Assembly (NCBI GenBank): GCA_963795855.1
Contig: CAWCIZ010000001.1
Span: 192,001-256,000, forward strand
Direction of reading: 5' to 3'
From: Vulcanimicrobiota bacterium
GTDB lineage: Bacteria > Vulcanimicrobiota > Vulcanimicrobiia > Vulcanimicrobiales > Vulcanimicrobiaceae
Length of the DNA: 64,000 nt
Below the pieces are notes generated by a model. The model saw nothing but the letters and a program-made list of their open reading frames with translations. It made no database searches and was not told the DNA's origin. Made by a program: the position numbers and the translations under genes. This document shows positions 47,566 to 64,000 of this stretch, piece by piece; within the stretch, counting starts at the first letter, position 1; every line of letters starts with the position of its first letter.

Positions 47566-47743
47566 GATACCGCCTACGCAGCCAAGTGCAGGCGCCGCTA
47601 CGTCGCGACCGCTCGGCCGGAGCGCCGTATGCGCTCTTTGCAAGCAAAGAATTGCTGCGTCGTAACGCAGCAATTCGATACCGCCTACGCAGCCAAATGG
47701 GGGCCCCGCTACGCGGGGGGCGCGGCGGCTCGGCCGGAGCGCC
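47566..47743 (+). repeat. Two imperfect ~61-67 bp direct repeats flanking a perfect 12-bp hairpin
   Basis: GATACCGCCTACGCAGCCAA...CCGCTACG...GCTCGGCCGGAGCGCC at 47566-47626 and 47677-47743; GAATTGCTGCGT-CGTA-ACGCAGCAATTC at 47649-47676. Confidence 0.85.
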
Positions 47744-47750
47744 TTTTCAA

Positions 47751-48213
47751 ATGAAAGAGCGACGACAGCGAGCCATTCTCACCCTCGTTTCGACGCGACC
47801 CGTGCGATCGCAGGACGAACTTGCGGAGTTGCTGGAGGCGCAAGGGTTCGAAACCACGCAGGCGACGATCTCGCGCGATATCAAGGAGCTGGGATTGGTG
47901 AAGGTGCCGATGAAAGACGGCAGCGCGCATCAGTTCAAGTACGTGCTGCCCACCGCGGAAACGCGTCGTTCCAGCCGCCTGCACCGTCTGGTTTCCGAAC
48001 TGGTCGGATCCATCAAGAGCAGCGACAATCTGATCGTGCTGCGCACGCCGCCCGGCAGCGCGATGATGGTCGCTGCCGCAATCGACGAGGCGCAGTGGCC
48101 GGAGATCATCGGCACCATCGGCGGCGACGATACGATTCTCGTCATCGTCGAACGATCCCAAGAGCACGCCAATCATCGTGCAACGCTTTACCGATTTGAA
48201 AGAGAGTTCGTGA
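47751..48213 (+). CDS. argR: Arginine repressor; frameshift near the 3' end
   Basis: RQRAI, SQDEL, TQATISRDIKELG, RTPPGSA, GTIGGDDTI. Confidence 0.93.
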
Positions 48214-49419
48214 ACAGCAAGACCATCGTTCTAGCCTACTCCGGCGGCTTCGACACCTCCGTACTGCTCAAACGCTTTATTTTGGAAGGGCACGACGTTA
48301 TCGCGCTGACCGCCGACTTGGGCGAAAGCGATGCGATTGCGGGCAGCGGCGCGGCGCAAGCGCTGCAAGGCGTGAAGGCAAAAAGCGATCGCGCTCGGCG
48401 CGCGAGACGCGGTGCTCGTCGACGCGAAGCAGCGTTTCATCGAAGACTTTGCTTATCGCGCGCTGCACGCGAACGCTCTGTATCAAGGCGTGTATCCGCT
48501 TTCGGCAGCGCTCTCGCGCCCGCTGATCGCGCATCTGCTCGTCGAAACCGCGCATGCGTACGGTGCCGGTGCGGTTGCGCACGGGTGCACCGGAAAAGGC
48601 AACGACCAAGTGCGCATCGAGCTCGGCGTGCGCGCGCTCGACCCGCAGCTCGAGTGCCGTGCGCCGCTGCGCGAGAAACCGCTCTCGCGCCCGGACGCAA
48701 TCGCGTTCGCAAAGCGAGACGGCGTGCCGGTTGCGCACACCGCCGAGAAGCCGTACTCCATCGACGCGAATCTCTGGGGTCGGTCGATCGAAGCCGGCGT
48801 GCTTGAAGATCCCTGGAACGCGCCGCCGGAAGATGCGTACGCGTGGACGGCGTCGCCGCGAAGATCGTCCCGTCGACAGCCGGACGAAGTCACGATCGAG
48901 TTCTGCGGCGGTCTGCCCGCATGGAACGGCGCGACGGGCTGGCAGTTGATCGCGCAGTTGAACGCGATCGCCGGAAAACACGGCGTGGGCCGCATCGATC
49001 TGGTGGAAGATCGCGTCGTCGGTTTGAAGTCGCGCGAAGTCTACGAATGTCCCGGGCATCCGTTTTGCTCGTGACGGCGCGAAAGGCGCTGGAACGCGTC
49101 GTGCTCACGCGTGACGAGTTGCGCTTCAAATCGCAGCTGCGATCAGAAGTATGCGGAATTGGTGTACGACGGCCTGTGGATGTCGCCGCTGCGCGACGCT
49201 CTGGATGCATTCAATGCCAGCAGCGCGCAGCGCATGAGCGGCAAGGTTCGCGTGCGCTTGCATCAGGGCGCCGCAACCGTCACCGGCGTGCAATCGCCGT
49301 TCGGGCTGTATTCCGAGGCGCTCGCCACATACGGCAAAGACGATGCATTCGATCATCAGGCGGCGGAGGGATTCATCAAATTGCACGGTTTGCCGCTCGA
49401 GATGGTCGCGCGCACGTGA
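48210..49419 (+). CDS. argG: Argininosuccinate synthase; frameshifts
   Basis: VLAYSGGFDTS, ALSRPLI, HGCTGKGNDQVR, YSIDANLWGRSIE, GLKSREVYE, AEGFIKLHG. Confidence 0.93.
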
Positions 49420-50773
49420 CGAATTCGCTGCAGTGGGGCGGCCGCTTCAGCGCGCCGCCGGATCCGGTGCTGCTGCGGTTCGGATCCTCGCTGGAAGAAG
49501 ACCTCGTGCTCGCACCGTTCGACGTGCAGTGTTCCAAAGCGCACGTTGCGGCTCTGGAAGCGGGCGGCGTTCATCGCATCATCGCGCGCGAGCGAGTTGC
49601 GCGCTGCGCTCTGGAAGCGGTCGCATCCGAAATCGCGCAAGGGACTTCGAGCGGATCGCGCGTGCGAGCGGTGCGGAAGATATTCACGGCGCGATCGACG
49701 CGCGCGTGCGCGAACTCGCGCCGGAAGCCGGCGAACTGCTGCACGCGGGCCGCAGCCGCAACGATCAAGTCGCAACGACGCTGCTGCTGTATTGCGCGGA
49801 TCGCGCCGCGAGGGCGCAACGCAGTAACGGCCGGAATCGCATCGGCGCTGTGCGCATCCGCGGAAGACGAACTGCAAGCGGGCACGTCTGCTCGCAGCGA
49901 CGACGCATTGGCAGCCGGCACAACCCGTGCTGCTCGCCTTCTGGCTGTGCGCCGCCGCGGAACCATTTCTGCGAGATGCGCAGCGCTTTGCCGGCGTGCG
50001 GGCGCAATCGCTCGCGCGCATGTCCGCTGGGCTCCGCCGCGCTGGCCGGATCCTCGCTCCCGTTCGATCGGCGAGATCGCTGCAAACGCGCTCGGCTTCG
50101 CTGCGCCGTCGCGCAATGCTTTGGACGCGGTCGGCAACCGCGACGCGGCACTGGATCTCGCGCACGCGTGCGTTCGCGCGCTCGTTACGGCTTCGCGGCT
50201 TTGTGAAGAGATCGTGATCTGGAACACGCCGAACTTCGGGTACGTAACGCTGGGAGACGAAGCGGGCACCGGTTCGAGTTTGATGCCGCAAAAACGCAAC
50301 CCCGATCCGTTCGAATTGGTGCGTGCAACTTCGGCCGCGATGATCGGCCGATTTGCGGGTGCGCTCGCGACCGTGAACGGAATGGCGCTCTCGTATCACC
50401 GCGACCTGCAAGTCACCAAAAGCGCTGCAATCGAAATCGTCGAGGCGTGCTTGGCTTCGCTGGAAGCGTTCGCGCGCGCGCTCGAGCACTTGCAGTTCAA
50501 TCGCGGCCGGATGACCGCGCTCGCCGGCGAGGCGTTCACGGTGGCGACCGACGTTGCGGATCGACTGATCTGCAAACGGCGCGACCGCACGCGAAGCGCA
50601 TGCCGAAGTCGGGGCTGCCATACTGAAAAGCGAGCGCGAAAACACGCTGCTGGAGTGGCCTGACGCTCACGCGTCGGTCGAAGGAAAGGAGACTGCGGGT
50701 TCGACGCGTCCCGACTGCGGTGCGCGAGTCGCTGAGTGCCCTGCAGGCGGACGTCGAGGCGCTGCTTCGCTGA
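49416..50773 (+). CDS. argH: Argininosuccinate lyase; frameshifts
   Basis: WGGRF, EDIH, HAGRSRNDQV, PLGSAALAG, GSSLMPQKRNPD, YHRDLQ. Confidence 0.92.
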
Positions 50774-50786
50774 TGCCGGCGCCGGC

Positions 50787-51620
50787 TTACTGTTTGACGA
50801 ACAGCGCGTCCTTACACGTCAAACAGTTGCGCCCGAAGAAATCCGCGTAGTACGTGTCCACCAGCACCGTATCGCCGGTCGCGTCGACGAAAGCTTGAAT
50901 ATCCGTGCTTTTACGCTTGCTGTCTTCCACGATGACGTAGTCGCCGGGTTGCAGCAAAGGAGCAAGGTGGCGCAGCACGCCTTCCACGTTGACGTGCGCA
51001 TCTTCGATCACGAACCATGGGTGCGGTAAAGCTTCCAGCATGCTTGCGGGCAGATCGCAGTCGATCGTTTCACAGTCGCCTCGAACGAAGGTGATTCGCG
51101 CATCGTCGACTTGCGGCCGTTCCTTGTCGAAGGAGACGATCGACGGCGAAGGTTGAAAAGCCGACAGCACGTCGCAGAGCCATAAGGCGCTACCGCCCGC
51201 GCCGGCGCCGATTTCGATGACCGTGCGCGGCTTACGCTCCCACAGCATCATCGGATAGACGGCGATCTCGAAAACGCTCTTGAACAACGGAATGCCTCGC
51301 CAATTGGTGCAGTGCCGCACGCCTTGAAGCGAAGCAGATTGCAATCCGGCGATCTCCCAAGGGCGTCGAACGTAGTTTTGCGATTCGGCAGCGCGCTGCG
51401 CGTAGCGCACGTATCGCGGATGCTCCCGCGCAAGCTCGTAATATGCAGCCACGAGGGCGCTCTCGCACCACTCGGCGCCGGAGTCGTTGCTCCGAAGTGC
51501 CTCCAGCAGGCTGAGAACCATCTTATCAAAGCCCGCGTTCGTGCCGTGCTGCGCGCGCAGCGCCTTGTCCGTCACGATGCGCTCGAGATCGACGAGCATT
51601 TGAGGCGGCAGCGTGCCCAT
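50787..51620 (-). CDS. CmcI (cephalosporin hydroxylase)-family SAM-dependent O-methyltransferase with N-terminal extension
   Basis: WRGIPLFKSVFEIAVYPMMLWERKPRTVIEIG..GGSALW, VIEDAH, GDYVIVED, D.YY.DFFG.N. Confidence 0.82.
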   Translation of the reverse strand: MGTLPPQMLVDLERIVTDKALRAQHGTNAGFDKMVLSLLEALRSNDSGAEWCESALVAAYYELAREHPRYVRYAQRAAESQNYVRRPWEIAGLQSASLQGVRHCTNWRGIPLFKSVFEIAVYPMMLWERKPRTVIEIGAGAGGSALWLCDVLSAFQPSPSIVSFDKERPQVDDARITFVRGDCETIDCDLPASMLEALPHPWFVIEDAHVNVEGVLRHLAPLLQPGDYVIVEDSKRKSTDIQAFVDATGDTVLVDTYYADFFGRNCLTCKDALFVKQ

Positions 51621-53044
51621 CAAGACGTCCCGTTCAAGCGGCTATCGCAAGGGGCTGGCGCTCCGCATGGTTCTTTCGCTCGCCCTTTCACTTTATGATT
51701 CGGAATCGATACGATATGAGGTGCTGCGGGGGCTGGCTTCACCCTTTCACTGATGTTCTCGTATCGCAGCTTATTGAGCGGAATCGCGTAGACCGTTGTG
51801 CTTCCTGCTACGAATACCGTGTCTCCGACGACGACAGGCGGCGAGGTCGTAAATGGCTCCGCGAAGTCTAGACTCCTAATCATCTTACCTGTTCGCGCAT
51901 TTAACGAGTATAGGATTCCCGACGTGTCTCCCGCGATCAGCATCCCCCCTGCAATCACCGGGCTCATCTTTATCGGCGCAAGGGAGGTGAATGACCACCG
52001 AATTTTACCGGTGCGGGCGTCAAACGCCATAAGACGATCGTGCGTGCAAATCGGCTGATAGTAGGTCCCGTCCGCATACGTGCCTGCAATCGATCCCTCA
52101 TCCGATCCAACCGATGAATACATGCCTCGGTTTGGCGTGTGGTAAATCCATCTGAGCCTACCGCTATGGGCATCCAAGGCCGTGACGTCGGCAACGGTAT
52201 AATGCGTAATGGGTGACGTACCTGGCGCAAACCGGCTGCTACTGCAGAATACGGCTCCGTCGCCGTATGTTGGTGAACAATCCCAGTTCCCGTATGGCGC
52301 TCTCCAAATGATTCGTCCGGTTCGGGAATCCAATGCGTCCGTCTGGCACGCTTTGTCGGGCAACCTGTCGACACAGGTTGAGACGAAGATGGTGCTTCCG
52401 AGGAAATTCGCTGATGCCATTGCCGCGGGGCCTCCGAGCGTGCGCACCCAGCGCAGGCGGCCGGATTTCGCATCAATCCCGTAAGCGTGGCTGTCCCCAT
52501 TAGCAAATATGAGCGTATCGTTAACGAGCGCGGCGGACGGCATGTCCTCGCCGACCGTTTTGAACGACCAGACCTGCTTTCCGGTTTGCGCGTCGAACGC
52601 GGTCACTTTGTCGCCCTGCGCTCGGCCTAGCACGTCATAAGTTGTGAATGGCAATTGGACAGTGCCGGGGTCCGTGAGCGTACCATGCATACCGGAACCG
52701 ACGTAAACAAGCCCGTGGCCGACGACGGGCGTCGTCATGACGATATTGTCGGTATGGGCACGCCAGATAGGTCTTCCCGTCCTGACGTCCAGCGCTATCA
52801 CGTCTTTACCGAACGAGTCGACGTATAGCACGTCGTTCAAAATCGCTAAGCTGCCGTTGATCTTGCCTTCGGCCGTAAATTTCCAATGCGTGCGAAAGCC
52901 ATGCCGCGGAAACACCGCGTTGTGGCTGGGCGCATATTGGTACATCGGCCAAGACGCCGAAGAAAGCACATTAGCGTGACCGGTGTGGCAAGCCGCGAGA
53001 AACACGCACACTGGTAGCAATTTGTGAACCATACGAACTCTCAT
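51620..53044 (-). CDS. PQQ-like (BamB-type) beta-propeller repeat lipoprotein
   Basis: Lipobox-like FLAAC; repeated A(L/F)DA.TG...W motifs; WPMYQY...HN. Confidence 0.82.
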   Translation of the reverse strand: MRVRMVHKLLPVCVFLAACHTGHANVLSSASWPMYQYAPSHNAVFPRHGFRTHWKFTAEGKINGSLAILNDVLYVDSFGKDVIALDVRTGRPIWRAHTDNIVMTTPVVGHGLVYVGSGMHGTLTDPGTVQLPFTTYDVLGRAQGDKVTAFDAQTGKQVWSFKTVGEDMPSAALVNDTLIFANGDSHAYGIDAKSGRLRWVRTLGGPAAMASANFLGSTIFVSTCVDRLPDKACQTDALDSRTGRIIWRAPYGNWDCSPTYGDGAVFCSSSRFAPGTSPITHYTVADVTALDAHSGRLRWIYHTPNRGMYSSVGSDEGSIAGTYADGTYYQPICTHDRLMAFDARTGKIRWSFTSLAPIKMSPVIAGGMLIAGDTSGILYSLNARTGKMIRSLDFAEPFTTSPPVVVGDTVFVAGSTTVYAIPLNKLRYENISERVKPAPAAPHIVSIPNHKVKGRAKEPCGAPAPCDSRLNGTS

Positions 53045-54593
53045 TTTTTCGCCACTACCCATTGCATGAGTACCTCGCGGTCACGGCGTCCGCCGGTTAT
53101 CGTGAATGGAACCTTGCTGACGCAACATCCAAGTGCGCGCTCATACCGGCCCTTATCTACGGGGAAGCCAAGTAAATACACGCTTCCAAAATGGCGTAAA
53201 ATCGCTGGTGACGGTGGAGAAGACACCAAGTCCATATGCGCGCGAGGATTCAGATAAAAGAGCTACGTCGAGCGCATCGGCCCACGTTACCGGCATCACG
53301 AGCACCGGGTCATCCGCGGCGTTCACGCGAGCTGCGACGGGCTTGACCCAGCCGTTGAAGTCGTTGTCCCACCAGACGCCGGACCGTGCGTCGACGAACG
53401 AGGAGGCCGCACACAGGAGCATCAACGCGATTGCCGCGCATGCCCATGCATTGCGTGTCGCCGATCGCCTGCATCGGATACGAGAAGCCAAGAATCCTGC
53501 AACGCACACGACTAACGTCACCCACAACGGCATGCCATAACGTGTCACGCTGGAGCGGTGTGCATGAAACATGGCGTCAGTCCCAACCAAGGAAACAATC
53601 GGAACGAGCACGAGCGCCGCGGTGATGATACGCGTTCGTGGTGTGGCGCGCAAAAAATTCCAAACCAATGCGCTCAGCCCAATCGCTGCCACCGGAATAA
53701 GCACCAACCACGCACGGCGATGAACGTACTCGAGGTCAAAGAACGCAGAGCCGGCATTGAACGCCCAGGACGTTGCGAGCACCGAAAGCGACAACGAGCC
53801 CGCGCTCCACCGATTCAGAAAAAGAATTTCGCGCAGGTGTTCCGTCATTATCAAGAGCCACGGCACAAAGCCAATGGATGCAATAGCCAGACTAAGAAAA
53901 AATCTGCGCAGGCGTCTTCCGCGTAGCAGCGCAACGGCGTAGATGCTGTGAGCGAACAGCGTAACTGCAAATAGAGTATCCGTATAAAGGCCGAGCATCG
54001 CCATCGTGCAGTACGCCGCCCACCATCCCGTCGAGCTGGATCGACTGGCTCGTAAAAGGAGCGCCGTGCAAAGTGCGAAGATCAGCGACCACAGAGTGTA
54101 TTCGCGAGCCTGCTGCGAATGTATCAAGAGGACTGGTGACAGTGATGAGAGAGCAAAGCCTGCAGCCGCGGCAAGCCGGTTCCCATATCAGCTCCCAACA
54201 CAGGCCAGCTACCGCGAACGGCACGAGCAGGCCGAACAGTAAAGCAGGGGCGCGCAACTGCGCAATCGACATCCCGGCGACGCGAGTCCACAGCGCTGTC
54301 ATGACATAAAACAGTGGCGGATGCTGCGCGTCCTCGTTGGCTAACGAACGCACCGTATCGACCGCAGATCCGTGTTCGCCTCTACCGGTGAAACGCAGTA
54401 TCTCCGATACGCTTCGCGGTTTGCCAACTGCGTTGGCGGCGACGAACGCGCGAGCGGTGTGGCCGGACACCCGCAGAGCAGTCACGGCTTCATCGCTCCA
54501 GAACAGTCGCGTCGGTTCGCCGGTAAAGCGCAATGCCAGTCCTAATAAACCCGCAAGCACGAGCAGCGCGATGAGCTCGAAGGCGCGAGGCAT
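53041..54593 (-). CDS. GT39/ArnT-like (GT-C) membrane glycosyltransferase; frameshifts near 54170 and 53235
   Basis: FWSDEAVTALRVSG, DAQHPPLFY, SQQAREY, multi-TM. Confidence 0.78.
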
Positions 54594-55068
54594 CGCACCC
54601 GTTTTCCTCCGCGGGACCACAGTGCGGAACTCCCAGAGTGCCGGCGTGCGCTGGGCAACGCGGAATATATTCATTCTTCTGTAGTATAGGTTGCGCAGTA
54701 GTGACACTAACCGTCCCACCGCTCTCACAGAGCGATGGTGCTTATGGAGCCGTGGAAACCGGTCGCCATGGCTTACGATTCTGTGCTCATTCCGTAGGGC
54801 CGCCCGCCTGTCCGCGTGCGGGACGAATTACCCACCTTACGATCGGCAAATCGTGATCGACAAAGCCGCGCTATAGCGATCCGTTTGTTGGCGGCCGGCG
54901 ACGCTGCCGCTTTTCCATCCGAACTCGATCATGGCGCGGCTGGGGCGCAGGGCAACATCAGGAACAGTCGCTCCGGGGCGCGCATTGGACCCATGAAGCC
55001 CTAGTCATGATGCACCACGCCGCCTGCATCCGTGCGGGCGTTTCGCCCAGGAAGCCGCGGCTGATACG

Positions 55069-56337
55069 GTGAGTGCAAGGATCTATTTGCACATGTGGGA
55101 CACCAGCCGGCGCGAGGTGATGGATTGGCTTTTGCAGCCGTTCTCCATTGAAGCCTTCGCGTCCGAGTATTACGAGCGGCGTCCGCTCTATGTCGAGCGC
55201 AGCGATGCCGGTTATTACGACGGCCACGCGAGCCTTACGGACGTGGAAGCGTTGCTCTTCGGCGTCGAGCTCGAAAAGGGCGATTTACGCATAACGAAGG
55301 ACGGGGCGGACGTTCGGCCCGAGGAGTGGCTGCACGTCCTCGAGTCCTATAACAACGTCACAAAAAAAATTACCACGCGCGAGATCGTCGACCCGCACAA
55401 AGCCGTACAGTTGTTCGCAAGCGGCTGTACGCTGTTTTTCGAGCGCGCGGGGCGCCATTGTCCGGCGGTTGCCGCGATGCAATATCGGCTCGAATCCTTC
55501 TTCGGCCATGCGATCGATGCGGGAATATTTCTGACACCCGCCGGGGCGCAGGGCTTAGCCGTGCACTACGATTCGATCGATGCCATCGTCTTGCACTGTG
55601 AAGGCCGCAAACGCTGGCGCGTGTACGAGCCCTGCATCGAACTTCCGCTCGACGAGGCTCCGCGCAATCAGAAGGACAAGCCCGGAGCGCTATTGCTCGA
55701 CGTCGAGATGCGGCCCGGCGATATGCTGTACATGCCGCGCGGGACGTTTCACGAGCCGCGCGCAAACGACGCCAGCTATTCCTTGCACGTAACGTACGGT
55801 CTGCGGCCTGTGAAATGGCATCACGTTTTGCGCGAAGCCCTGCAGGATGCCGCTCGCGCGAATCCCCTGCTGCGTGCGAGCGCGTGCGCGCCCACGAGCG
55901 AAGAGTCGATTGCCGCAATCGTCGGGCAGACGTTTGCTCTCGCCAACCTGCGGCGTATCGAGCAGCGCCTGGACGACCGCAATCGTGAAACGATCCGCAA
56001 CCCGGGGAACGGCGTGCTGCAGCAGGCGGTTTCGCTTGACGATTTGACGCCGTCGTCGACGGTGCGCCTCCGCCCCGGCGCGATCTATTCCATAAAATCG
56101 AACGGCAGCGGGTGCGTCCTCACCTGCTCCGGCGTGCGCATACCGTTGCCGGAGCAGGCGCAGACCGCTGTTTCATTCCTGGAGCGCTGCGGCAGCGCTG
56201 CAATCGAAGACCTTCCGCTGGAGCCGTCCCGAGCCGTCGGGATCGTGCGTAAACTCATTGCAGCGGCCGTCCTCGAACAGCCGGGGTTACGCGCGCGCAG
56301 CGTTGAGAACGCGGTCTTCGCCGGAGCGGGTGAATAA
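55069..56337 (+). CDS. JmjC/Cupin_4 (ROX/YcfD-like) 2OG-Fe(II) oxygenase, paralogue A (alternative start 55093)
   Basis: F.SEYYERRPL, TPAGAQGLAVHYD, EGRKRWRVY, PGDMLYMPRGTFHE, SLHVT; C-terminal winged-helix-like domain. Confidence 0.88.
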   Translation: MSARIYLHMWDTSRREVMDWLLQPFSIEAFASEYYERRPLYVERSDAGYYDGHASLTDVEALLFGVELEKGDLRITKDGADVRPEEWLHVLESYNNVTKKITTREIVDPHKAVQLFASGCTLFFERAGRHCPAVAAMQYRLESFFGHAIDAGIFLTPAGAQGLAVHYDSIDAIVLHCEGRKRWRVYEPCIELPLDEAPRNQKDKPGALLLDVEMRPGDMLYMPRGTFHEPRANDASYSLHVTYGLRPVKWHHVLREALQDAARANPLLRASACAPTSEESIAAIVGQTFALANLRRIEQRLDDRNRETIRNPGNGVLQQAVSLDDLTPSSTVRLRPGAIYSIKSNGSGCVLTCSGVRIPLPEQAQTAVSFLERCGSAAIEDLPLEPSRAVGIVRKLIAAAVLEQPGLRARSVENAVFAGAGE

Positions 56338-57529
56338 CGGGCGAAGCCACTCGAAGGCGTGCAATTTGAACCAATCGTCTTCCAGCGCGCGCATCTCGCG
56401 CGAATCACCGCACGCACACCGGGCTGCCGCTTCGCCGAACGTCAAACCCTCAAGGGCGCATCGCAGTAAAAGACCGGGTGACTTCGAGGCGAAGTCGAGC
56501 GAACGCAGTCTGCACGAACCGGTCGAAGAGTTCCGCAAGTTTATCGCGCGGATCGATGCCTGGATACCGGTTTGCAAGGAATCGTTCGACGACGGCGATG
56601 TCGGGAGCGTGCGTCAACAGTGCGATCAGCAAGCGGATCTGCGGATCCGGGATCGACGCCATCGACTGCTTCGCGAAATGCATCTTCGCGCGCGATTTGA
56701 GCGCGCCGGCGAGAGTGTACGCCAAGCCGGCATGTCGCTTGGCGAGGATGGCGACCAATCGCGCACGAGAGACCGGGCTCACGCGATCCAGCGCGGGCAT
56801 CATGATGACGCTGCACGCGTCCCAAAACTCCGCCGTTTCGACGACTTGCGCGGCGGCCTCTTCGAAGAGCGCCGGATCGACTTTTGCGACGCTGCTCAGC
56901 AGCGCGAGTTTGGTTCGAAGCGGTTCGGGCTCGTAGGAAAAATCGTACGCAAGCCCCGGCCCGAGAAAGCTGTAGCGCTCGGTTTGAACCTCTTTCCTCG
57001 ACCGCACCAGCACGCTGATGGACGGCGATTCCAAGTGGAGAAGCGCATGGATGAAGCCGTTGCCGGCTGCGATCGCACGGATGCAGCCTTCCGAGAGATA
57101 CTCGGCGCTCTTAAAGCGGAGATCGCCCAAAGCCAGACGTTCGGTGATTTGCTCCGAGCGGTCAAACGAATATTGACAGTGGAAACTCGACCCTCTGAGC
57201 ACGCCCCACGCGCCCGCGAACGTATGCGAGTGTATCGACGTCGGCGCGTTGATCCAAAACAGCAGTTGCACGATCACGCTCTCGCCGATGAAGACGCAGA
57301 CGGGCGGGTCCGCGACCTTCGAAAGGGGAGGTCCGTTTTGCTGCGCCATTTCCCACGTGAGGATGTCCTCCAGGAGCACGGATCGCCAGCCGTCGTCGCG
57401 CTCGAGCGCCGCCGCTGCCAATTCGGGAAGTGCAGCAGGATCGCACTGCGTTGCTTGCCAGCGCCGGTCGACCGATTCCCCAATGCGGCGAAGACAATCG
57501 ATCTTTGCCGCAGCGGCCGTTGCGCTCAC
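56287..57529 (-). CDS. Cupin protein with cysteine-dioxygenase-like 3-His motif plus helical C-terminal region; frameshift near 56480
   Basis: TSIHSHTFAGAWGVLRG...FIHALLH..SISVLVR; starts 7 nt after the JmjC-B stop. Confidence 0.65.
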
Positions 57530-57536
57530 ACGAAGT

Positions 57537-58771
57537 CTATGCTACGGCGGTTTGCGCCGCCGGCTCGGTAGCGCTGGAGAGTTGAATCGCAAAACCGTCT
57601 TGGATGAGTTTGCGCACGACCTTCAACGCTTTTTCGTCGTGCTTGAGCAGATCGCCCGCGCGCACGCTGGTGCGGCTCTGCAATTCGTTGATGATTGCGG
57701 CCGCGTACGGCGCCAGCGTGAGCGTCTTGTTGGAGAACGTCAGTTTGGTGGCGTGCTCCGTCTGCTCGATGCTGCAGAGCATATCCGGCCGCACCGCCAC
57801 GATCGAATCCTCGGAGAGATCCTTTAGCCTTGCGATCTGCCCCAACTGTCCGCTGAGGTCGTTGCGGTAGCGCTCGTTGACGTAGCGGTTCGTCATCGAT
57901 TCCAGCGTCTCGCACAACGTTTGCGGGGAAAGCATTGCAGCGACGGCCTCGGCTATTTGCGCTGCGGTTTCCGGTGAGGCGTTTTTGCGGAGGACGGCAT
58001 CGGCGTGCGCCGATTCCTTGAGTGCCTCGTGCAGCACTTCAATCCAGCGCCTTTGGTGGATTCCCAGGGTAACGTGCAAGGAAAGGTCCTCGTTGGCGCT
58101 GGCCTCGTGCAAGAACCCGCGAGGGATGTACAGCATGTCTCCGGGCTGCATAGCGATGTCGAGCAGCGTTTCTTTTGAGGCGTGTATCTTTTTGTCGTGC
58201 GGCTGCGTCTCGAGCGGCAGTTCGACCGGGCTGTCGTAGACGCGCCAGTGCTTCGAACCGGTAATTTGGATGATCGCCGTGTCGTGCGTATCGTAGTGAA
58301 CGGCAAAGCCCTGGCTGCCGGGCGGCGTCATGTAGATATTGGGCTGGACGTCGCAGCGCCAGAAACGCTCCAGTTTCCGGCACAGCGTTGCGAGGGGGGG
58401 TGCGAACCGGTCCACACGGTCGAAAACGATCGTGCAGCCGTCGGCAAAGAGCGAAGAAACGAGATCGGGCTCGATGATTTCGCCGGGCGAAAGCTCTGAT
58501 CGCGCCGTATCCGGGTCTTTTTTGTGACGTACGTTTCCGGGCGCGCTTCAGTTCCGTCCTTTACCGGCCGCAAGTCTTTGGTGGTGATGACCGAGCCGAA
58601 CAGCACCCGCTCGTACTCGGCCAAACTGAAGTACTCATCGTAAAACCCCGGCACGTTACGCGATACGTGCAAGGGGCGCCGCTCGAAGTAGTCATTTTGA
58701 AACTGCTCGATCGACAGCGATCCTAACAGCCACGCTAATGTCGCGCGATCTTTCGCTTCGGTGCTGGGCAT
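57537..58771 (-). CDS. JmjC/Cupin_4 2OG-Fe(II) oxygenase, paralogue B; frameshift at an A6 run (~58520)
   Basis: F.NDYFERRPL, TPPGSQGFAVHYDTHD, GSKHWRVY, PGDMLYIPRGFLHEA, SLHVTLG; C-terminal winged-helix-like domain. Confidence 0.88.
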
Positions 58772-58908
58772 ACGGGTCGTCCTCCAAAGGTGCACAGAGC
58801 CCGTCTGGGTGGGCTGCAGGGCTTTACCGTGAAGCTACCTCACGTCGTACCACTCGGCAACGTCTAGTTGCATCATGGCAGCCTGCGTCGATGGGCCCCC
58901 GGCAAAAT

Positions 58909-58940
58909 AATTAGGCTCCCCGCTTGCGAGGAGCCCAATT
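58909..58940 (-). terminator. 14-bp hairpin after the small peptide gene (partial terminator or mRNA stabiliser)
   Basis: Minus strand AATTGGGCTCCTCG-CAAG-CGGGGAGCCTAATT-ATTTT. Confidence 0.7.
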
Positions 58941-58960
58941 CGGGGAGTGAGGCGCCGGAT

Positions 58961-59122
58961 TTAGTGGCTGTCGCCGCTTCCGAACGCACCGTCATTGGTG
59001 ATGTCGCACACGCCGTTCGGATCGGTCGGGCCGTCCGGGCACGAGGACGAGAAGCCGCTGCCATCGCCGTACAGCGCCGGTACGAAATACGAGGTCAGCA
59101 GTTGAGGGGTCTTGTATTCCAT
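58961..59122 (-). CDS. Putative RiPP precursor peptide, 53 aa: MEYKTPQLLTSYFVPALYGDGSGFSSSCPDGPTDPNGVCDITNDGAFGSGDSH
   Basis: Hand-translated (below the ORF-track cutoff); RBS AAAGGAGG 7 nt upstream; GC3-rich codons; YxxPxL motif; co-oriented upstream of the JmjC and cupin genes. Confidence 0.75.
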   Translation of the reverse strand: MEYKTPQLLTSYFVPALYGDGSGFSSSCPDGPTDPNGVCDITNDGAFGSGDSH

Positions 59123-59514
59123 GGGTTAGCCTCCTTTAAAAGTAGCGCCGCTGTCGCTATACAGTGGGCGGTACATACAAAGGTAGCAGCAGCGCTGCAA
59201 GGGCGGAATTTCCGTTGGCATCATTTCTTGCTAAGGAGTGCTGCTCAGGCTTATACGCCATGGTTTTGAACTTCTCACGCCGGTAGTCTGGTCGGCACCG
59301 GGCCGAATGGCGCTCGACACTCTTCGGACGGTTGCTTTTTCTGTCAGCGGGCGAACGGGCTTAATCCGAAGCGCACGAAAACGGAAAAATTTTTGAAGCA
59401 TTACGCTTTGCGCACGCAGGCCCGCGACAAAAGCAGGTGAATTGGTTAGGGCGATCGTGCTTACACGCCGGTCGGGCATCCCTTTTTTGCTTTTTCACCC
59501 AGAGAAAGTCTTGC

Positions 59515-60933
59515 ATGCACACCTCTTCCAAGATTGCCGCGCTTGCGATCGCTGCGTCCGTTCTGGCAGCGTGTTCCGGCGGCGGTGGTTCGCTCACTCC
59601 GCAATCCAATCTCTCTACGGCGCCGGCGGCGCCCGCGTCGGGCGCATCGCGCTTCATCGCAAGCACCGCCGCGGCAACCAACACTCAGGATTTCACCTAC
59701 GACGCGAATCCGCCGACCAAACCGTTCGGCAACGGCGCGCCGGTAACCGCAAATGCTCTACCGCCGCCTTCCGTCTGCGAGCAAGTATACGGGCTTGCAT
59801 GCTATACGCCGTCGGAAATCAAAACCGCGTACGACGTTCCGTCGCAGTTCAATGGGAGCGGCCAAACGATCGTGATCGTGGACGCCTTCGGCAGCCCGAC
59901 GATTCAGAGTGATTTGCACGTTTTTGACACGGTTATGGGTTTACCCGATCCCGCCTTCGACATCCAGTATCCGGGCGGCCAGCCCTCTGCTTTTGACGGC
60001 AGCAATAATCGATCCGGCTGGGCCGGAGAGACCTCGCTCGACGTGGAGTGGGCGCACGCTATTGCACCGGCCGCGACCATCCATCTCGTTATTGCAAAAA
60101 CCAACTCGAGCACCGACATCAGTACCGCGGAAGCGTACGCTATGCAAACGTATCCGGGGAGCGTCATCTCAATGAGCTTCGGCGCCGGCGAGCCGGCGAT
60201 TCCGGGCGGGGCGAACAACTCGCACTTGCAGCACGACGACAAATTCTTCCAGCAGGCGCAGCATCAGAACACCACGCTGATCGCGAGCGCGGGAGACACC
60301 GGAGCGACGAACGGCACGGGCACGCTGACCGCGGAGTTTCCGGCATCGGATCCCTCCGTGTTGTCGGTCGGCGGCACCGACCTGTTCATGAGCGACGCCG
60401 GCGTCTATCAGCAAGAGACGGTGTGGAACGATACCGTTTCGTCGTTGTGTCCGTTCGGCTGTTATTACGGCGCCTTTGGCGTGACGGGCGGCGCGCCCAG
60501 CCGCCTCTTCCGCGCGCCAAGTTATCAGCAGAGCCTCTTTCATCCCGACACGCGCGAGACGGCCGACGTCAGTTACAACGCCGGCGTCTACACCGCGGTC
60601 CTGGTCGCAGAGGGTTTCAACTCGCCGGGTCAGGTCGGATTCTATTTCGTGGGCGGAACGAGCGCCGGCGCACCGCAATGGGCCGGCATCATCGCGCTTG
60701 CGAATCAGGCCGCGGGACATTCGCTTGGATTCGTGAACAAATCCCTGTACCATATTGCGAAAAACGGGCCGTACGCTTCCGCGTTTCACGACGTCACCGT
60801 CGGCAACAACGCGCTGTTCAGCCTTCCGGGAGAAAACGCGGGACCCGGTTACGACATGCCGACCGGTCTCGGATCGCCGAACGTGGCGAACCTGATTACC
60901 GCGTTGACCGCGGACGGAAACTCCGGGAACTAA
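59515..60933 (+). CDS. S53 (sedolisin/kumamolisin-like) serine peptidase, lipoprotein
   Basis: Lipobox LAAC; ETSLDVEWAHAIAP, SAGDTG, FPASDPSVLSVGGT, GGTSAGAPQWAG, GYD.PTGLGSP. Confidence 0.9.
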   Translation: MHTSSKIAALAIAASVLAACSGGGGSLTPQSNLSTAPAAPASGASRFIASTAAATNTQDFTYDANPPTKPFGNGAPVTANALPPPSVCEQVYGLACYTPSEIKTAYDVPSQFNGSGQTIVIVDAFGSPTIQSDLHVFDTVMGLPDPAFDIQYPGGQPSAFDGSNNRSGWAGETSLDVEWAHAIAPAATIHLVIAKTNSSTDISTAEAYAMQTYPGSVISMSFGAGEPAIPGGANNSHLQHDDKFFQQAQHQNTTLIASAGDTGATNGTGTLTAEFPASDPSVLSVGGTDLFMSDAGVYQQETVWNDTVSSLCPFGCYYGAFGVTGGAPSRLFRAPSYQQSLFHPDTRETADVSYNAGVYTAVLVAEGFNSPGQVGFYFVGGTSAGAPQWAGIIALANQAAGHSLGFVNKSLYHIAKNGPYASAFHDVTVGNNALFSLPGENAGPGYDMPTGLGSPNVANLITALTADGNSGN

Positions 60934-60956
60934 CCACCGAAAATTCGTTCGAGAAG

Positions 60957-60988
60957 AAGGGCCCGCTGCTGCAGCGGGCTTTTTTTTG
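60957..60988 (+). terminator. Intrinsic terminator
   Basis: GCCCGCTG-CTG-CAGCGGGC-TTTTTTTT after the S53 gene. Confidence 0.85.
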
Positions 60989-60991
60989 CGG

Positions 60992-62630
60992 TTATCGCGG
61001 CGCGAGCGTCCAGTGCGCGACGTTCCACCACACGCCGTCCTGCGAGACGCTTTGCCCGCGCAGCCGGCTGGTGAACGTGTCGACTTCGTTGCGGTTGTAG
61101 ATCAACACGATCGGCAGATCCGCGGAAAGCAGCCGTTCCAGTTTCGCATAGATCGCCTTACGCTGCGCCGGATCGAACGTGCTGCGGCCTGCGCGCAGCA
61201 GCGCGTCGATCTGCGGATCGCAGATGCGCGACTTGTTGTAGCCGTGCGGCGGCACGTTGCCGCACGCGAATTGATCGGTCGTGTCGGGATCGTCTCCGTT
61301 CACGAACGAATACAGCGCGAGGTTGAACTTGCCGCCGTAAACCGGTCCGCCTTCGCTGGCCGGCGCGACGAACTGCGTGATGTTGAATTGCTTGAGCGAC
61401 ACGCGGCGCCGGCCGCGCGTTCGTATTGCGTCACGGAGTTGCCGATAATCGCATCGCCGGGAGTCGCGGCCTGGACGATCATCTGCAGATCGAGCGGGTT
61501 GCCGTCCTTGTGGCGCACGCCGTCCGCGCCGGCGCGCCAGCCCGCGGCATCGAGCAGTTTGCGCGCATCGTGCGCGATCGTACGGAACGTCCGGATATGC
61601 GTGCGGATCGAACGCCCAGAAGAAGAGTCCGCGGCCGGCCTGCGCGCTCGACACTGCGCCGCGATAGGCTTTGGCGACGAGGCTTTTGATGTCGATCGCT
61701 TCCGCGAGCGCGCGACGCACGCGCGGATCCGCCGTCGCGGCATTCTGCGTGTTGAAAATGATCGCGCCGACGCCGGCGACCGGGCTCGCGGTCGTGCGGT
61801 AGCCGGACAACGCCAGCGAGCTGCGGATACTGCGAGTAATCCTGTGTCGTTGAAGTAGCCCTGCACTTCAGCGTCTGAAGCAGGTTCAGCGCCGTCTGCG
61901 CGTCCGGAACGAAGCGGATGGTCAGGCGATCGATCTTCGGTTTGCCGCCGAAGTAGTACGGATTCGCGTGCATGACGACGCGATCGCCGTGCAGCCAGCG
62001 CGTCACGACGTACGGGCCGGAGCCGATCGGCTGCTGATCGAACGCGATGTGATTGAAGTCTGGATACTTCGCGAGCAGATGTTGCGGGAAGAATCGGAAA
62101 GCCTTGCGGCGCGAGCACGAGCGTCAGCAGCGGCGCAAAGGGCTCCTTCAAATGCAGCACCAGCGTGTAGTCGTTGGGCGCCTCGGCTTTCGCGATGCGA
62201 TCGTAGCCGTATCGCGACTGCACGTTGTTCGCCGGATTGTTGATGGCGTCGATGGACCACACGCAATCGCGCGCGGTCAGCGGCGCACCGTCCGCAAAGC
62301 GCACGCCTTTGCGCAGATGGTACGTCATCGTCAGGCCGTCGCGGCTGATGCCGCCGTTCGCGATCGACGGCGCCTGCGTCGCAACGTCGCCGATCGAGGT
62401 TTCCGCGATCGTCGTACTTCACGAGATAACGAAAAGAGCAGAAATCCCCACTCCGTCGAGGACTGTCCGTTTTCCAGCGCGGGATTGAGCGATCGCGGCT
62501 CACGCTGCTGCGCGATTTGCAACGACGTTTGCGTGTGCCGGCGCGCCGATTAGTTTGGGTGCGCGCTGTCAAAAGCGCACAGCGCCGAGCAGCACGCCTG
62601 CGGCAACTCGGGTGCGCGATGCTTCAGCAT
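60992..62630 (-). CDS. Peptide/oligopeptide ABC transporter substrate-binding protein (family 5); multiple frameshifts, start approximate
   Basis: EPRSLNP, YHLRKGVRFADG, PIGSGPY, ANPYYFGGKPKI, DPRVRRAL, AGWRAGADGVRHKDG. Confidence 0.85.
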
Positions 62631-63640
62631 GGCACCAGTCGAACGGCAGGTTGGGATCGGCGCTCAACGTGAGCGCATCGGCGCGCACGGCATCACCTTG
62701 GTGCGCGGCGGCCGCGGCAATCATCGCCGCGTTGTCGGTGCAATATTTCGGCGGCGGAACAAACGCGGGCACGCCGTTGCGCGCACTCCATTCGGCGAGC
62801 GCGGCTTGCAGCGCGGAGTTTGCGGCGACGCCGCCGGAAAGCACGACGCAGGTGTACGCGCTGCGTTCGAACGCCGCGTTCGAGACGCTGCATCAGCACG
62901 TCAATCACCGCCGCTTGAAACGATGCGGCGACGTCCGCCTTCTCGGCTTGCGCGCCTTCGGGATTCCAAGTAATAGCGAACCGCCGTTTTCAGGCCGGAA
63001 AACGACATGTCGAGCGAGCCCGGATCCGGGACGATGTCGCGGAAACGCAATCGCCTTTGCGTTGCCGCCTTTGGCGAGTTTGTCGAGTGCGGGCCCGCCG
63101 GGAAAGCCCAAACCGAGTAGACGCGCCGTCTTGTCGTACGCTTCGCCCGCTGCGTCGTCTTTCGTCCGCCCGATGACGCGCATCTGCGTCGCGCTTTCGA
63201 CTTCGACGAGTTGCGAATGTCCGCCGGAGACCAGCAGCGCCAAAAACGGATACTGCGGCGTCTGCTCGCGATCCAGAAACGCCGCAAAAATGTGGCCGTG
63301 CAAATGATTGACGCCGTACAGCGGTTTGTCGATCGCGAACGCGAGCGCTTTCGCCGCCGCGACGCCTACGACCAAACTGCCGATAAGGCCCGGGCCGCGC
63401 GTTACGGCGATGCCGTCGATTCGTCATCGAGTCGTCGTGCCGGCGCGGTCGACCGCGTCCTCCACCGCGGCGGAGAGCAGCGCGACGTGCCGGCGGCTCG
63501 CGATCTCCGGCACGATGCCGCCGTACTTCGCGTGAAACGCGTCTTGGTTCGTCGAGACGCTCGCACGAACGCGCACGGCCGTCCTCAACCACGGCGGTCG
63601 CCGTGTCGTCGCACGAGGTTTCGATCCCGAGCAAAAGCAT
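62569..63640 (-). CDS. tsaD: tRNA N6-adenosine threonylcarbamoyltransferase; multiple frameshifts, 3' end approximate
   Basis: [66 protein letters not shown]. Confidence 0.93.
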
Positions 63641-64000
63641 GACGTGTACCTGGCTACGTTACGTACTTTCCGGGCCCATCCTCCGTCCAGACGCGCTCGT
63701 GGCCCAGCGCGCGCTGCTCTTCCGCGCCTAGATCGCCAAAAAGCAGCAGCAAGCAGTATCGCTGCAAGGCCCGTGAAGATGCATCGAAGCTCCGACCACG
63801 AGCTCATGGCCGATGCAGCGTCCAGCAGTAAGCGCCAGCGCAAGCAGCACGCGGCCACGGAGACTGTCCTCCTTCGATGAACAGACTGCCGAACGTCTTC
63901 GCCCGGCGACGATTCCGTCTTCGCTGCCGCGTCTTCGTCCGATCGTCGCCGGCGAGATGCGCGCTGCGCTCGAAGATCATTGCATAGCCCGCCGCGAACC

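Follow-up and report, generated by a model that had tools for sequence, protein, structure and literature searches.

Linear polyphosphorylated peptides (LPPs) were described in 2026 and called restricted to Bacillota, with the final product and its role unknown; in the accessible part of that report, leader cleavage by SpI depends on an RRE, Ser3 of the core is polyphosphorylated, and the gene set consists of a discrete RRE, a kinase resembling HprK, an SpI-like peptidase, an NTP transferase and an exporter (PMC13381572). Hydroxylation of a precursor peptide by JmjC-type enzymes is known from biphenomycin, where BipG/BpmG act on ornithine in the precursor, as the accessible sections of two papers describe (PMC12707348, PMC12257519), and bacterial PF08007 proteins occur in RiPP-like contexts, with a model Cupin_JmjC_RRE (RREFam042) listed, according to the available text of a third (PMC12710340). 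For the ribosomal oxygenase NO66, the substrate His is reported to be bound through Tyr328 and Ser421 (PMC9994133). A literature search, with most subscription papers outside its coverage, returned no description of the leader family reported here or of an LPP-like system with a JmjC enzyme, and the LPP paper, in its main text and six supplementary files, contains the term JmjC 0 times (PMC13381572).

The window, a 64,000-nucleotide stretch of a Vulcanimicrobiota contig to which all unprefixed positions refer, contains a short precursor-like gene next to a set of oxygenase-type genes:

58961..59122, minus strand: gene for a 53-aa precursor peptide (ATG start, translation, residue counts, family conservation)
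59130..59137, minus strand: ribosome-binding site AAAGGAGG, the sole copy in the window
59054..59122, minus strand: leader, residues 1-23, with a YxxPxL-type RRE motif (Y3, P6, L8), S11-Y12, L17 and the presumed peptidase site G21-S22-G23
58964..59053, minus strand: core, residues 24-53, Asp/Asn/Gly-rich, with F1-x-S3 (S26, the putative phospho-site) and a C28-x10-C39 loop
58900..58946, minus strand: terminator-like or stabilising hairpin, U-rich in its tail, separating precursor and oxygenase (z -2.25)
57537..58771, minus strand: NO66-like JmjC oxygenase (PF08007, JmjC_2), HxD...H intact, downstream of the precursor on the same strand (Pfam match, alignment)
56330..57529, minus strand: cupin with a thiol-dioxygenase-like fold, three invariant His and a helical C-terminal domain (structure model, Foldseek, alignment)
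55069..56337, plus strand: a further JmjC oxygenase, convergent and in the clade of the first (Pfam match, tree)

Conceptual translation confirmed the 53-aa minus-strand ORF and its sequence as given in the original prediction, and a residue count returned the composition claimed for the C-terminal 30 residues (5 Asp, 2 Asn, 3 Pro, 2 Cys as C28-x10-C39, and 1 His). The ribosome-binding site, predicted to be strong, is present at 59137-59130, 7 nt 5′ of the ATG, and its sequence occurs once in the window and 18 times in the genome. GC content at the third codon position of the ORF is 0.81, versus 0.55 and 0.53 at the other two. A dN/dS-type check across relatives, proposed with the original prediction, pointed the same way: over 24 leader codons, a region picked for its conservation, pooled pS was 0.72 and pN 0.34 in 11 comparisons, and pairwise differences by codon position were 0.36/0.35/0.64. 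Because of the GC3 bias, the excess of pS over pN and the codon-position pattern, we judge from sequence that the ORF is a real small gene, more than a chance reading frame, and presumably translated; that it encodes a precursor of some kind is very likely. The hairpin 3′ of its stop codon was equalled by 5 of 200 shuffles, and hairpins also lie 3′ of two paralogues on contig C2 (z -4.37 and -1.56). A strict scan called no promoter or terminator at the precursor locus, and an Rfam search of window positions 50000-64000 gave no match. Pfam and NCBIfam had no match for the window precursor or 7 relatives, none of the NCBIfam leader models matched the precursors, the precursor profile had no match in the PDB, and the peptide leads in the ESM Atlas all scored <0.9. 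A 34-aa ORF at 59157-59261 was rejected as a precursor, having no family match in Pfam or NCBIfam.

A leader profile search found 6 family members in the source genome (G000), several of which had contributed to the profile, and a short-ORF scan picked up the paralogues on its contig C2. Profile searches placed the family in at least 4 of 61 relatives (G000 included) and at least 8 of 401 genomes of the phylum; the first pass scored no more than 16 candidates per genome, so that members may have been missed. A weak match in G048, inside a 1149-aa frame, was dropped, as was one in G342, a long frame without YxxP that had brought the phylum count to 9. Source labels of the relatives are Eremiobacterota and Baltobacteraceae, and many of the precursors had been missed by gene callers. 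In a 50%-identity library there were 63 matches, 54 of which fit a strict motif; the other nine comprised 5 variant-like peptides, 1 related tandem peptide and 3 unrelated sequences.

The members share the block YxxPx[ILV]xx[ST][YF]x4Lx3[AGV]xG-F-x-S, which in the window precursor begins Y3-K-T-P6-Q-L8 (YxxPxL) and is followed by a variable, Asp/Gly-rich core with mostly two Cys (exactly two in 45 of the 54 library cores). Y3, P6, L17 and G23 are invariant among 21 aligned precursors, Asp occurs in 50 and His in 15 of the 54 library cores, and mean identity over 66 pairs is 0.51 for leaders versus 0.38 for cores, which bears out the reading as a precursor with conserved leader and variable core. 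Unpublished genome G266 supplies 4 of the 21 aligned precursor rows, 1 of 12 JmjC-adjacent pairs, 2 of 5 non-adjacent precursors, one cassette and one row each in alignments A5 and A6, and unpublished G254 one outgroup row of the tree; the conclusions are independent of both. A related leader type, YE[AT]P.V.A[ST][FY]...E without the GFxS end, occurs at L194 (G259:C55) and in protein P0060, one of which adjoins a more distant PqqD; it is possibly a sister RiPP family.

The same leader heads the precursors of a gene cassette on contig C2 of the source genome:

G000:C2:119932-124521 (L001 15933-20000): LPP-like cassette with nucleotidyltransferase, ABC ATPase and permease, two tandem precursors, PqqD, HprK-like kinase and SpI-like peptidase
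G000:C2:121195-121449: discrete RRE (PqqD)

This cassette ends a polysaccharide cluster whose opposite end carries a precursor and JmjC unit, and in its first tandem peptide the Ser lies one position later than in the family register. Tandem cassette peptides with this leader stand beside polysaccharide genes in G000 (C2), G229, G369 and G266, and JmjC units flank the cassette-side polysaccharide cluster in G229, in G369 (C17) and for one G000 paralogue. In G037 and G038, precursors, PqqD, kinase-like, peptidase and ABC genes are grouped away from the precursor and JmjC loci, and in G402 a precursor, PqqD, JmjC and two HprK-like genes lie on one strand. The C2 peptidase matches PF00717 (E 5.5e-9) and, as its best match, the archaeal-type SpI model TIGR02228 (E 2.5e-8, under cut-off); it has the Ser, His and Asp motifs and lies 0.9 kb from PqqD. 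The kinase matches TIGR04352 (E 3.3e-9, under cut-off) with Walker A intact, the NTP transferase matches PF14907 (NTP_transf_5) in a 384-aa open frame, and the exporter is a separate DrrA-like ATPase plus permease (the G037 permease is ABC2_membrane). The RRE profile found the lasso protein TfuB1 at E 6.7e-5 versus LppB (9x8z) at E 0.018. A cognate PqqD is present in 7 of 8 precursor genomes, and SpI is strongly matched in 6 of the 8; G179 (93% complete), which has precursors and JmjC, lacks a cognate PqqD and shows no more than a trace match to the peptidase. Among 11 window proteins scanned against Pfam and NCBIfam, there was no RRE, kinase, SpI or exporter, and we therefore assume action in trans. 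Processing of the window precursor by the C2 cassette is, in our estimate, likely.

Signal peptidase I follows a small-residue rule at positions -3 and -1. We place the cut after Gly23 because it fits this rule and sets the invariant Ser26 at core position +3. In the strict-motif peptides, position -3 of this presumed site is A, G or V in 54 of 54, core position +1 is Phe in 53 of 54, and +3 is Ser in all 54, a residue that the motif filter did not demand but that the profile search favours. The boundary guessed in the original prediction (SG|F) coincides with this site, but conservation extends past it into F24-x-S26. Double-glycine/C39 cleavage was set aside, since position -2 is never Gly in the 54 peptides. 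A kinase whose gene lies on a different contig probably phosphorylates Ser26.

Set against the accessible text of the LPP report (PMC13381572), the family shares, next to capsule genes (here on C2), a discrete RRE with HprK-like kinase, SpI-like peptidase, NTP transferase and exporter; it also has the same arrangement of one to three precursors with a YxxP leader, a variable C-terminus and no cyclase, and, given the presumed cleavage site, the same conserved Ser at core position 3. The differences on that comparison are the Eremiobacterota/Baltobacteraceae labels of the relatives in place of a restriction to Bacillota; a leader consensus that in LPPs is YxxPxVLxHQxIxFETxxS, whereas the one here (YxxPx[ILV]xx[ST][YF]x4Lx3[AGV]xG) is 5 residues longer and has no FET site; an ABC-2 type exporter rather than an MsbA-like one; and satellite precursors that are partnered by JmjC (or GNAT) genes and carry two-Cys cores. 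On sequence grounds, then, the family is LPP-like in its apparent working but fails two LPP features, leader consensus and exporter type.

The JmjC gene downstream of the window precursor is split by a frameshift near 58527 at an A6 run, which is probably an assembly error, because many genes in the assembly look similarly split. Homologues near oxygenase genes had been named as a test of the original prediction, and the precursors do adjoin such genes: 12 of 17 non-cassette precursors have a JmjC gene immediately downstream on the same strand (one with PqqD between), and the other 5 do not, 2 of them preceding GNAT-like genes. The two GNAT-adjacent family precursors are at G000:C3:683652-683810 (L010) and G179:C55 (L049), which suggests acylation as another satellite modification. 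All five PF08007 matches in G000 sit at three precursor loci, and in G037 and G038 the locus is only a precursor and a JmjC gene amid housekeeping genes. An unbroken pair in the source genome is the precursor at G000:C2:565104-565274 with the JmjC at C2:563705-564949. NO66-like JmjC proteins occur in 74 of 401 genomes, with scores of >=590 bits in the 8 precursor genomes and <=276 bits in the other 66, a gap that is partly circular in that the profile was built from those 8; all 16 top matches in this search sit at precursor loci. A quick 58-row tree, which sampled 10 of the 22 other genome loci and 35 of the 80 metagenome loci besides the 13 precursor-locus proteins, unites those 13 JmjCs and L081 on one branch (SH-aLRT 98). 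The leader was found at 0 of 102 other JmjC loci, a set with many short flanks that includes L081 with almost no upstream DNA. A related-locus search of genome contigs with the window JmjC found one distant locus. A sister NO66-like JmjC clade (L059-L080), found in each of the 18 genus g50 genomes, lacks such a precursor upstream. Sulfotransferase-like genes (PF13469; L002:12386-14289 and L042:12215-13177) adjoin JmjC/precursor loci of G000, where there are two copies, and of G229.

The closest solved structure to the window JmjC is human NO66 (best PDB match, E 2e-28). NO66/MINA53/YcfD ribosomal oxygenases share with the window-type proteins the HxD...H motif and, by alignment, the Tyr328 position; the window-type JmjCs differ in lying beside short precursors and in having Gly at the Ser421 position in 11 of 13 members of the precursor-locus clade, a change also seen in many distant homologues, and Arg is absent from most of the adjacent cores and His from many. 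Twelve JmjC-adjacent cores contain Asp in 12, His in 7, Arg in 2 and Lys in 1. It is quite likely that the JmjC acts on the precursor. Since Asp is in all 12 adjacent cores and Arg in 2, and Ser421 is changed to Gly, we lean somewhat towards Asp or Asn as the hydroxylation target; the Asp/Gly richness of the cores could instead reflect loop structure and not substrate choice. The original prediction had listed Asp, Asn, His and Pro as substrates of 2OG oxygenases; Asp stands up across the family, whereas His, found in 7 of 12 adjacent and 15 of 54 library cores, is a poor candidate and was rejected as a general target. BipG/BpmG offer the precedent for JmjC hydroxylation of a precursor core; BipG, going by the accessible descriptions, is set apart by its ornithine target, its MNIO/rSAM pathway and another precursor (PMC12707348, PMC12257519).

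The cupin ORF ends at 56450, beyond which a different frame extends the homology to about 56330. A model of the 359-aa protein, built from 6 sequences, reached pLDDT 73.7 (a single-sequence model, pLDDT 41.7, was set aside), and its top Foldseek matches are thiol dioxygenases (E 1.7e-5, TMt 0.60). With CDO, MDO and ADO it shares the cupin fold and three invariant His (His100, His102, His161); it differs from them in its ∼18-20% identity, its extra helical C-terminal domain and its lack of a Pfam match. Its ESM Atlas clusters, likewise without Pfam, score 0.95-0.96, as for an unnamed family. The cupin family occurs both with and without precursors, at three G229:C1 sites among others, and lies away from precursors at G402:C1 (304778-305974) and two G229 sites; because of this, a role of the cupin on the peptide, modelled from its fold, is the weakest step of the pathway proposed below. 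The two Cys had been suggested as a possible disulfide or thioether loop: no radical SAM or lanthipeptide enzyme was present among the 11 window proteins scanned, leaving the thioether unsupported, and we keep the disulfide as a proposal.

Other neighbours were also recorded. Positions 59437-60933 (plus strand) encode a divergent lipoprotein-like protease with motifs ETSLD, SAGD and GGTS and no Pfam match, which we take to be S53 sedolisin-like; it was rejected as a dedicated leader peptidase, having no homologue in 17 related loci. Housekeeping genes at 47586-50663 and 62555-63640, presumably argR/argG/argH-like and tsaD-like from their translations, appear to be broken up across several frames, in keeping with indel errors of long reads. 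On the minus strand, 50787-54728 holds a split GT-C/PMT-like membrane glycosyltransferase, a PQQ-repeat beta-propeller lipoprotein and a CmcI-like methyltransferase. G229 homologues of the GT-C/PMT-like and PQQ-repeat genes flank a JmjC/polysaccharide/LPP-like region, which gives the window locus the look of a fragment that came away from a cluster of this kind.

We regard an LPP-like satellite precursor, processed step by step in trans, as the best explanation of the locus and, on the whole analysis, a reasonably probable one. The observation that two-gene loci exist in G037 and G038, and that G179 lacks a cognate PqqD, would also fit a stand-alone JmjC RiPP, in which the oxygenase would itself bind the leader, through a C-terminal winged-helix (RRE-like) domain, and hydroxylate the core, and in which the LPP cassette would have the leader in common by ancestry without processing the window peptide. 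As far as the accessible texts go, RRE-like folds are fused to PF08007 domains (HMM Cupin_JmjC_RRE; PMC12710340) and RREs tell similar leaders apart (PMC13381572). Alignment of the JmjC C-terminal domain with PqqD gave an hhalign probability of 0.1%, with no PqqD match by sequence. We consider this reading unlikely, given that satellites retain [AGV]xG-F-x-S, as they should if they are still substrates of SpI and kinase, that G037 and G038 have the cassette elsewhere in the genome, and that the G402 JmjC operon holds PqqD and kinases. Distinctly less probable is that the precursor is LPP-like but JmjC and cupin act elsewhere, on polysaccharide-related metabolites or a protein, their linkage reflecting shared capsule islands. 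Oxygenase loci do abut polysaccharide clusters in G000, G229, G369 and G179, G229 has four JmjCs versus two satellite precursors, the cupin sites without precursors point the same way, and JGI automatically names several clade members 'L16 Arg81 hydroxylase'; yet the precursor-then-JmjC order recurs 12 times, including in housekeeping surroundings without polysaccharide genes, and the top JmjC matches all fall at precursor loci.

Two further readings have very little probability. That the ORF is untranslated, or its peptide unmodified, would accord with the lack of a Pfam or NCBIfam match and of expression and proteomic support, but it is highly improbable in view of the ribosome-binding site, codon-position pattern, family conservation and enzyme synteny. 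Least probable is a lasso peptide precursor with a YxxPxL leader and an Asp-rich core, a reading to which the motif itself, Asp at core positions 7 and 11, and a kinase and nucleotidyltransferase as in paeninodin clusters had given some appeal. Paeninodin-type phosphorylated lasso peptides do share the YxxP-type leader, RRE, HprK kinase, NTP transferase and capsule-locus context, but the precursor loci here have no cyclase or B2 peptidase. The B2 peptidase (PF13471) was found in 1 of 5 genomes only (G369, on another contig) and in none of G000 (86% complete), G229, G402 and G037, PF00733 cyclase matches lie far from all precursor loci, and no NCBIfam leader model matched. Lasso identity is thus largely refuted by the absence of B2 from G000 and of a cyclase near the precursor loci.

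Returning to the LPP-like satellite precursor, from the gene, the family and the gene neighbourhoods that we observed we infer the chemistry (modification, cleavage and expression) as a hub-and-satellite RiPP system. The discrete RRE of C2 would bind the YxxPxL motif of the leader, the C2 HprK-like kinase would (poly)phosphorylate Ser26, and the SpI-like peptidase would cut after Gly23, making Ser26 core residue 3 as in LPP. The downstream JmjC may be a locus-specific tailoring enzyme that uses Fe(II)/2OG to hydroxylate C-3 of a core residue, Asp or Asn most probably, and Cys28 and Cys39 may form a disulfide loop or undergo oxidation by the neighbouring thiol-dioxygenase-like protein. The product, to which nucleotidyl or glycosyl groups may also have been added, would exit through the ABC-2 exporter of the cassette and act at the cell surface together with capsule/EPS. 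More tentatively, this soil phylum may have a RiPP network in which a single LPP-like hub, made up of RRE, kinase, SpI, nucleotidyltransferase and exporter, serves many dispersed precursors, each with its own tailoring enzyme, with relatives of ribosomal oxygenases as dedicated peptide Asp/Asn beta-hydroxylases, a thiol-dioxygenase-like protein oxidising core Cys, and phosphorylated, hydroxylated, Cys-looped acidic peptides, tied to capsule and possibly metal-binding, as products; that all of this holds jointly is doubtful.

The window peptide is probably trimmed, phosphorylated and hydroxylated after synthesis and, as judged from sequence, resembles the LPP class, though it belongs to another phylum and has an oxygenase besides. 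If so, the SpI/RRE/kinase logic would extend to another phylum, with oxygenase tailoring and action in trans added to it. Many of the precursors were missed by gene callers, and such loci therefore escape genome mining. The family would also give bacterial NO66-like JmjC proteins, which databases mislabel as ribosomal L16 hydroxylases, candidate substrates that can be named, and since precursor and JmjC occur as two-gene units, the question of substrate is directly testable in E. coli.
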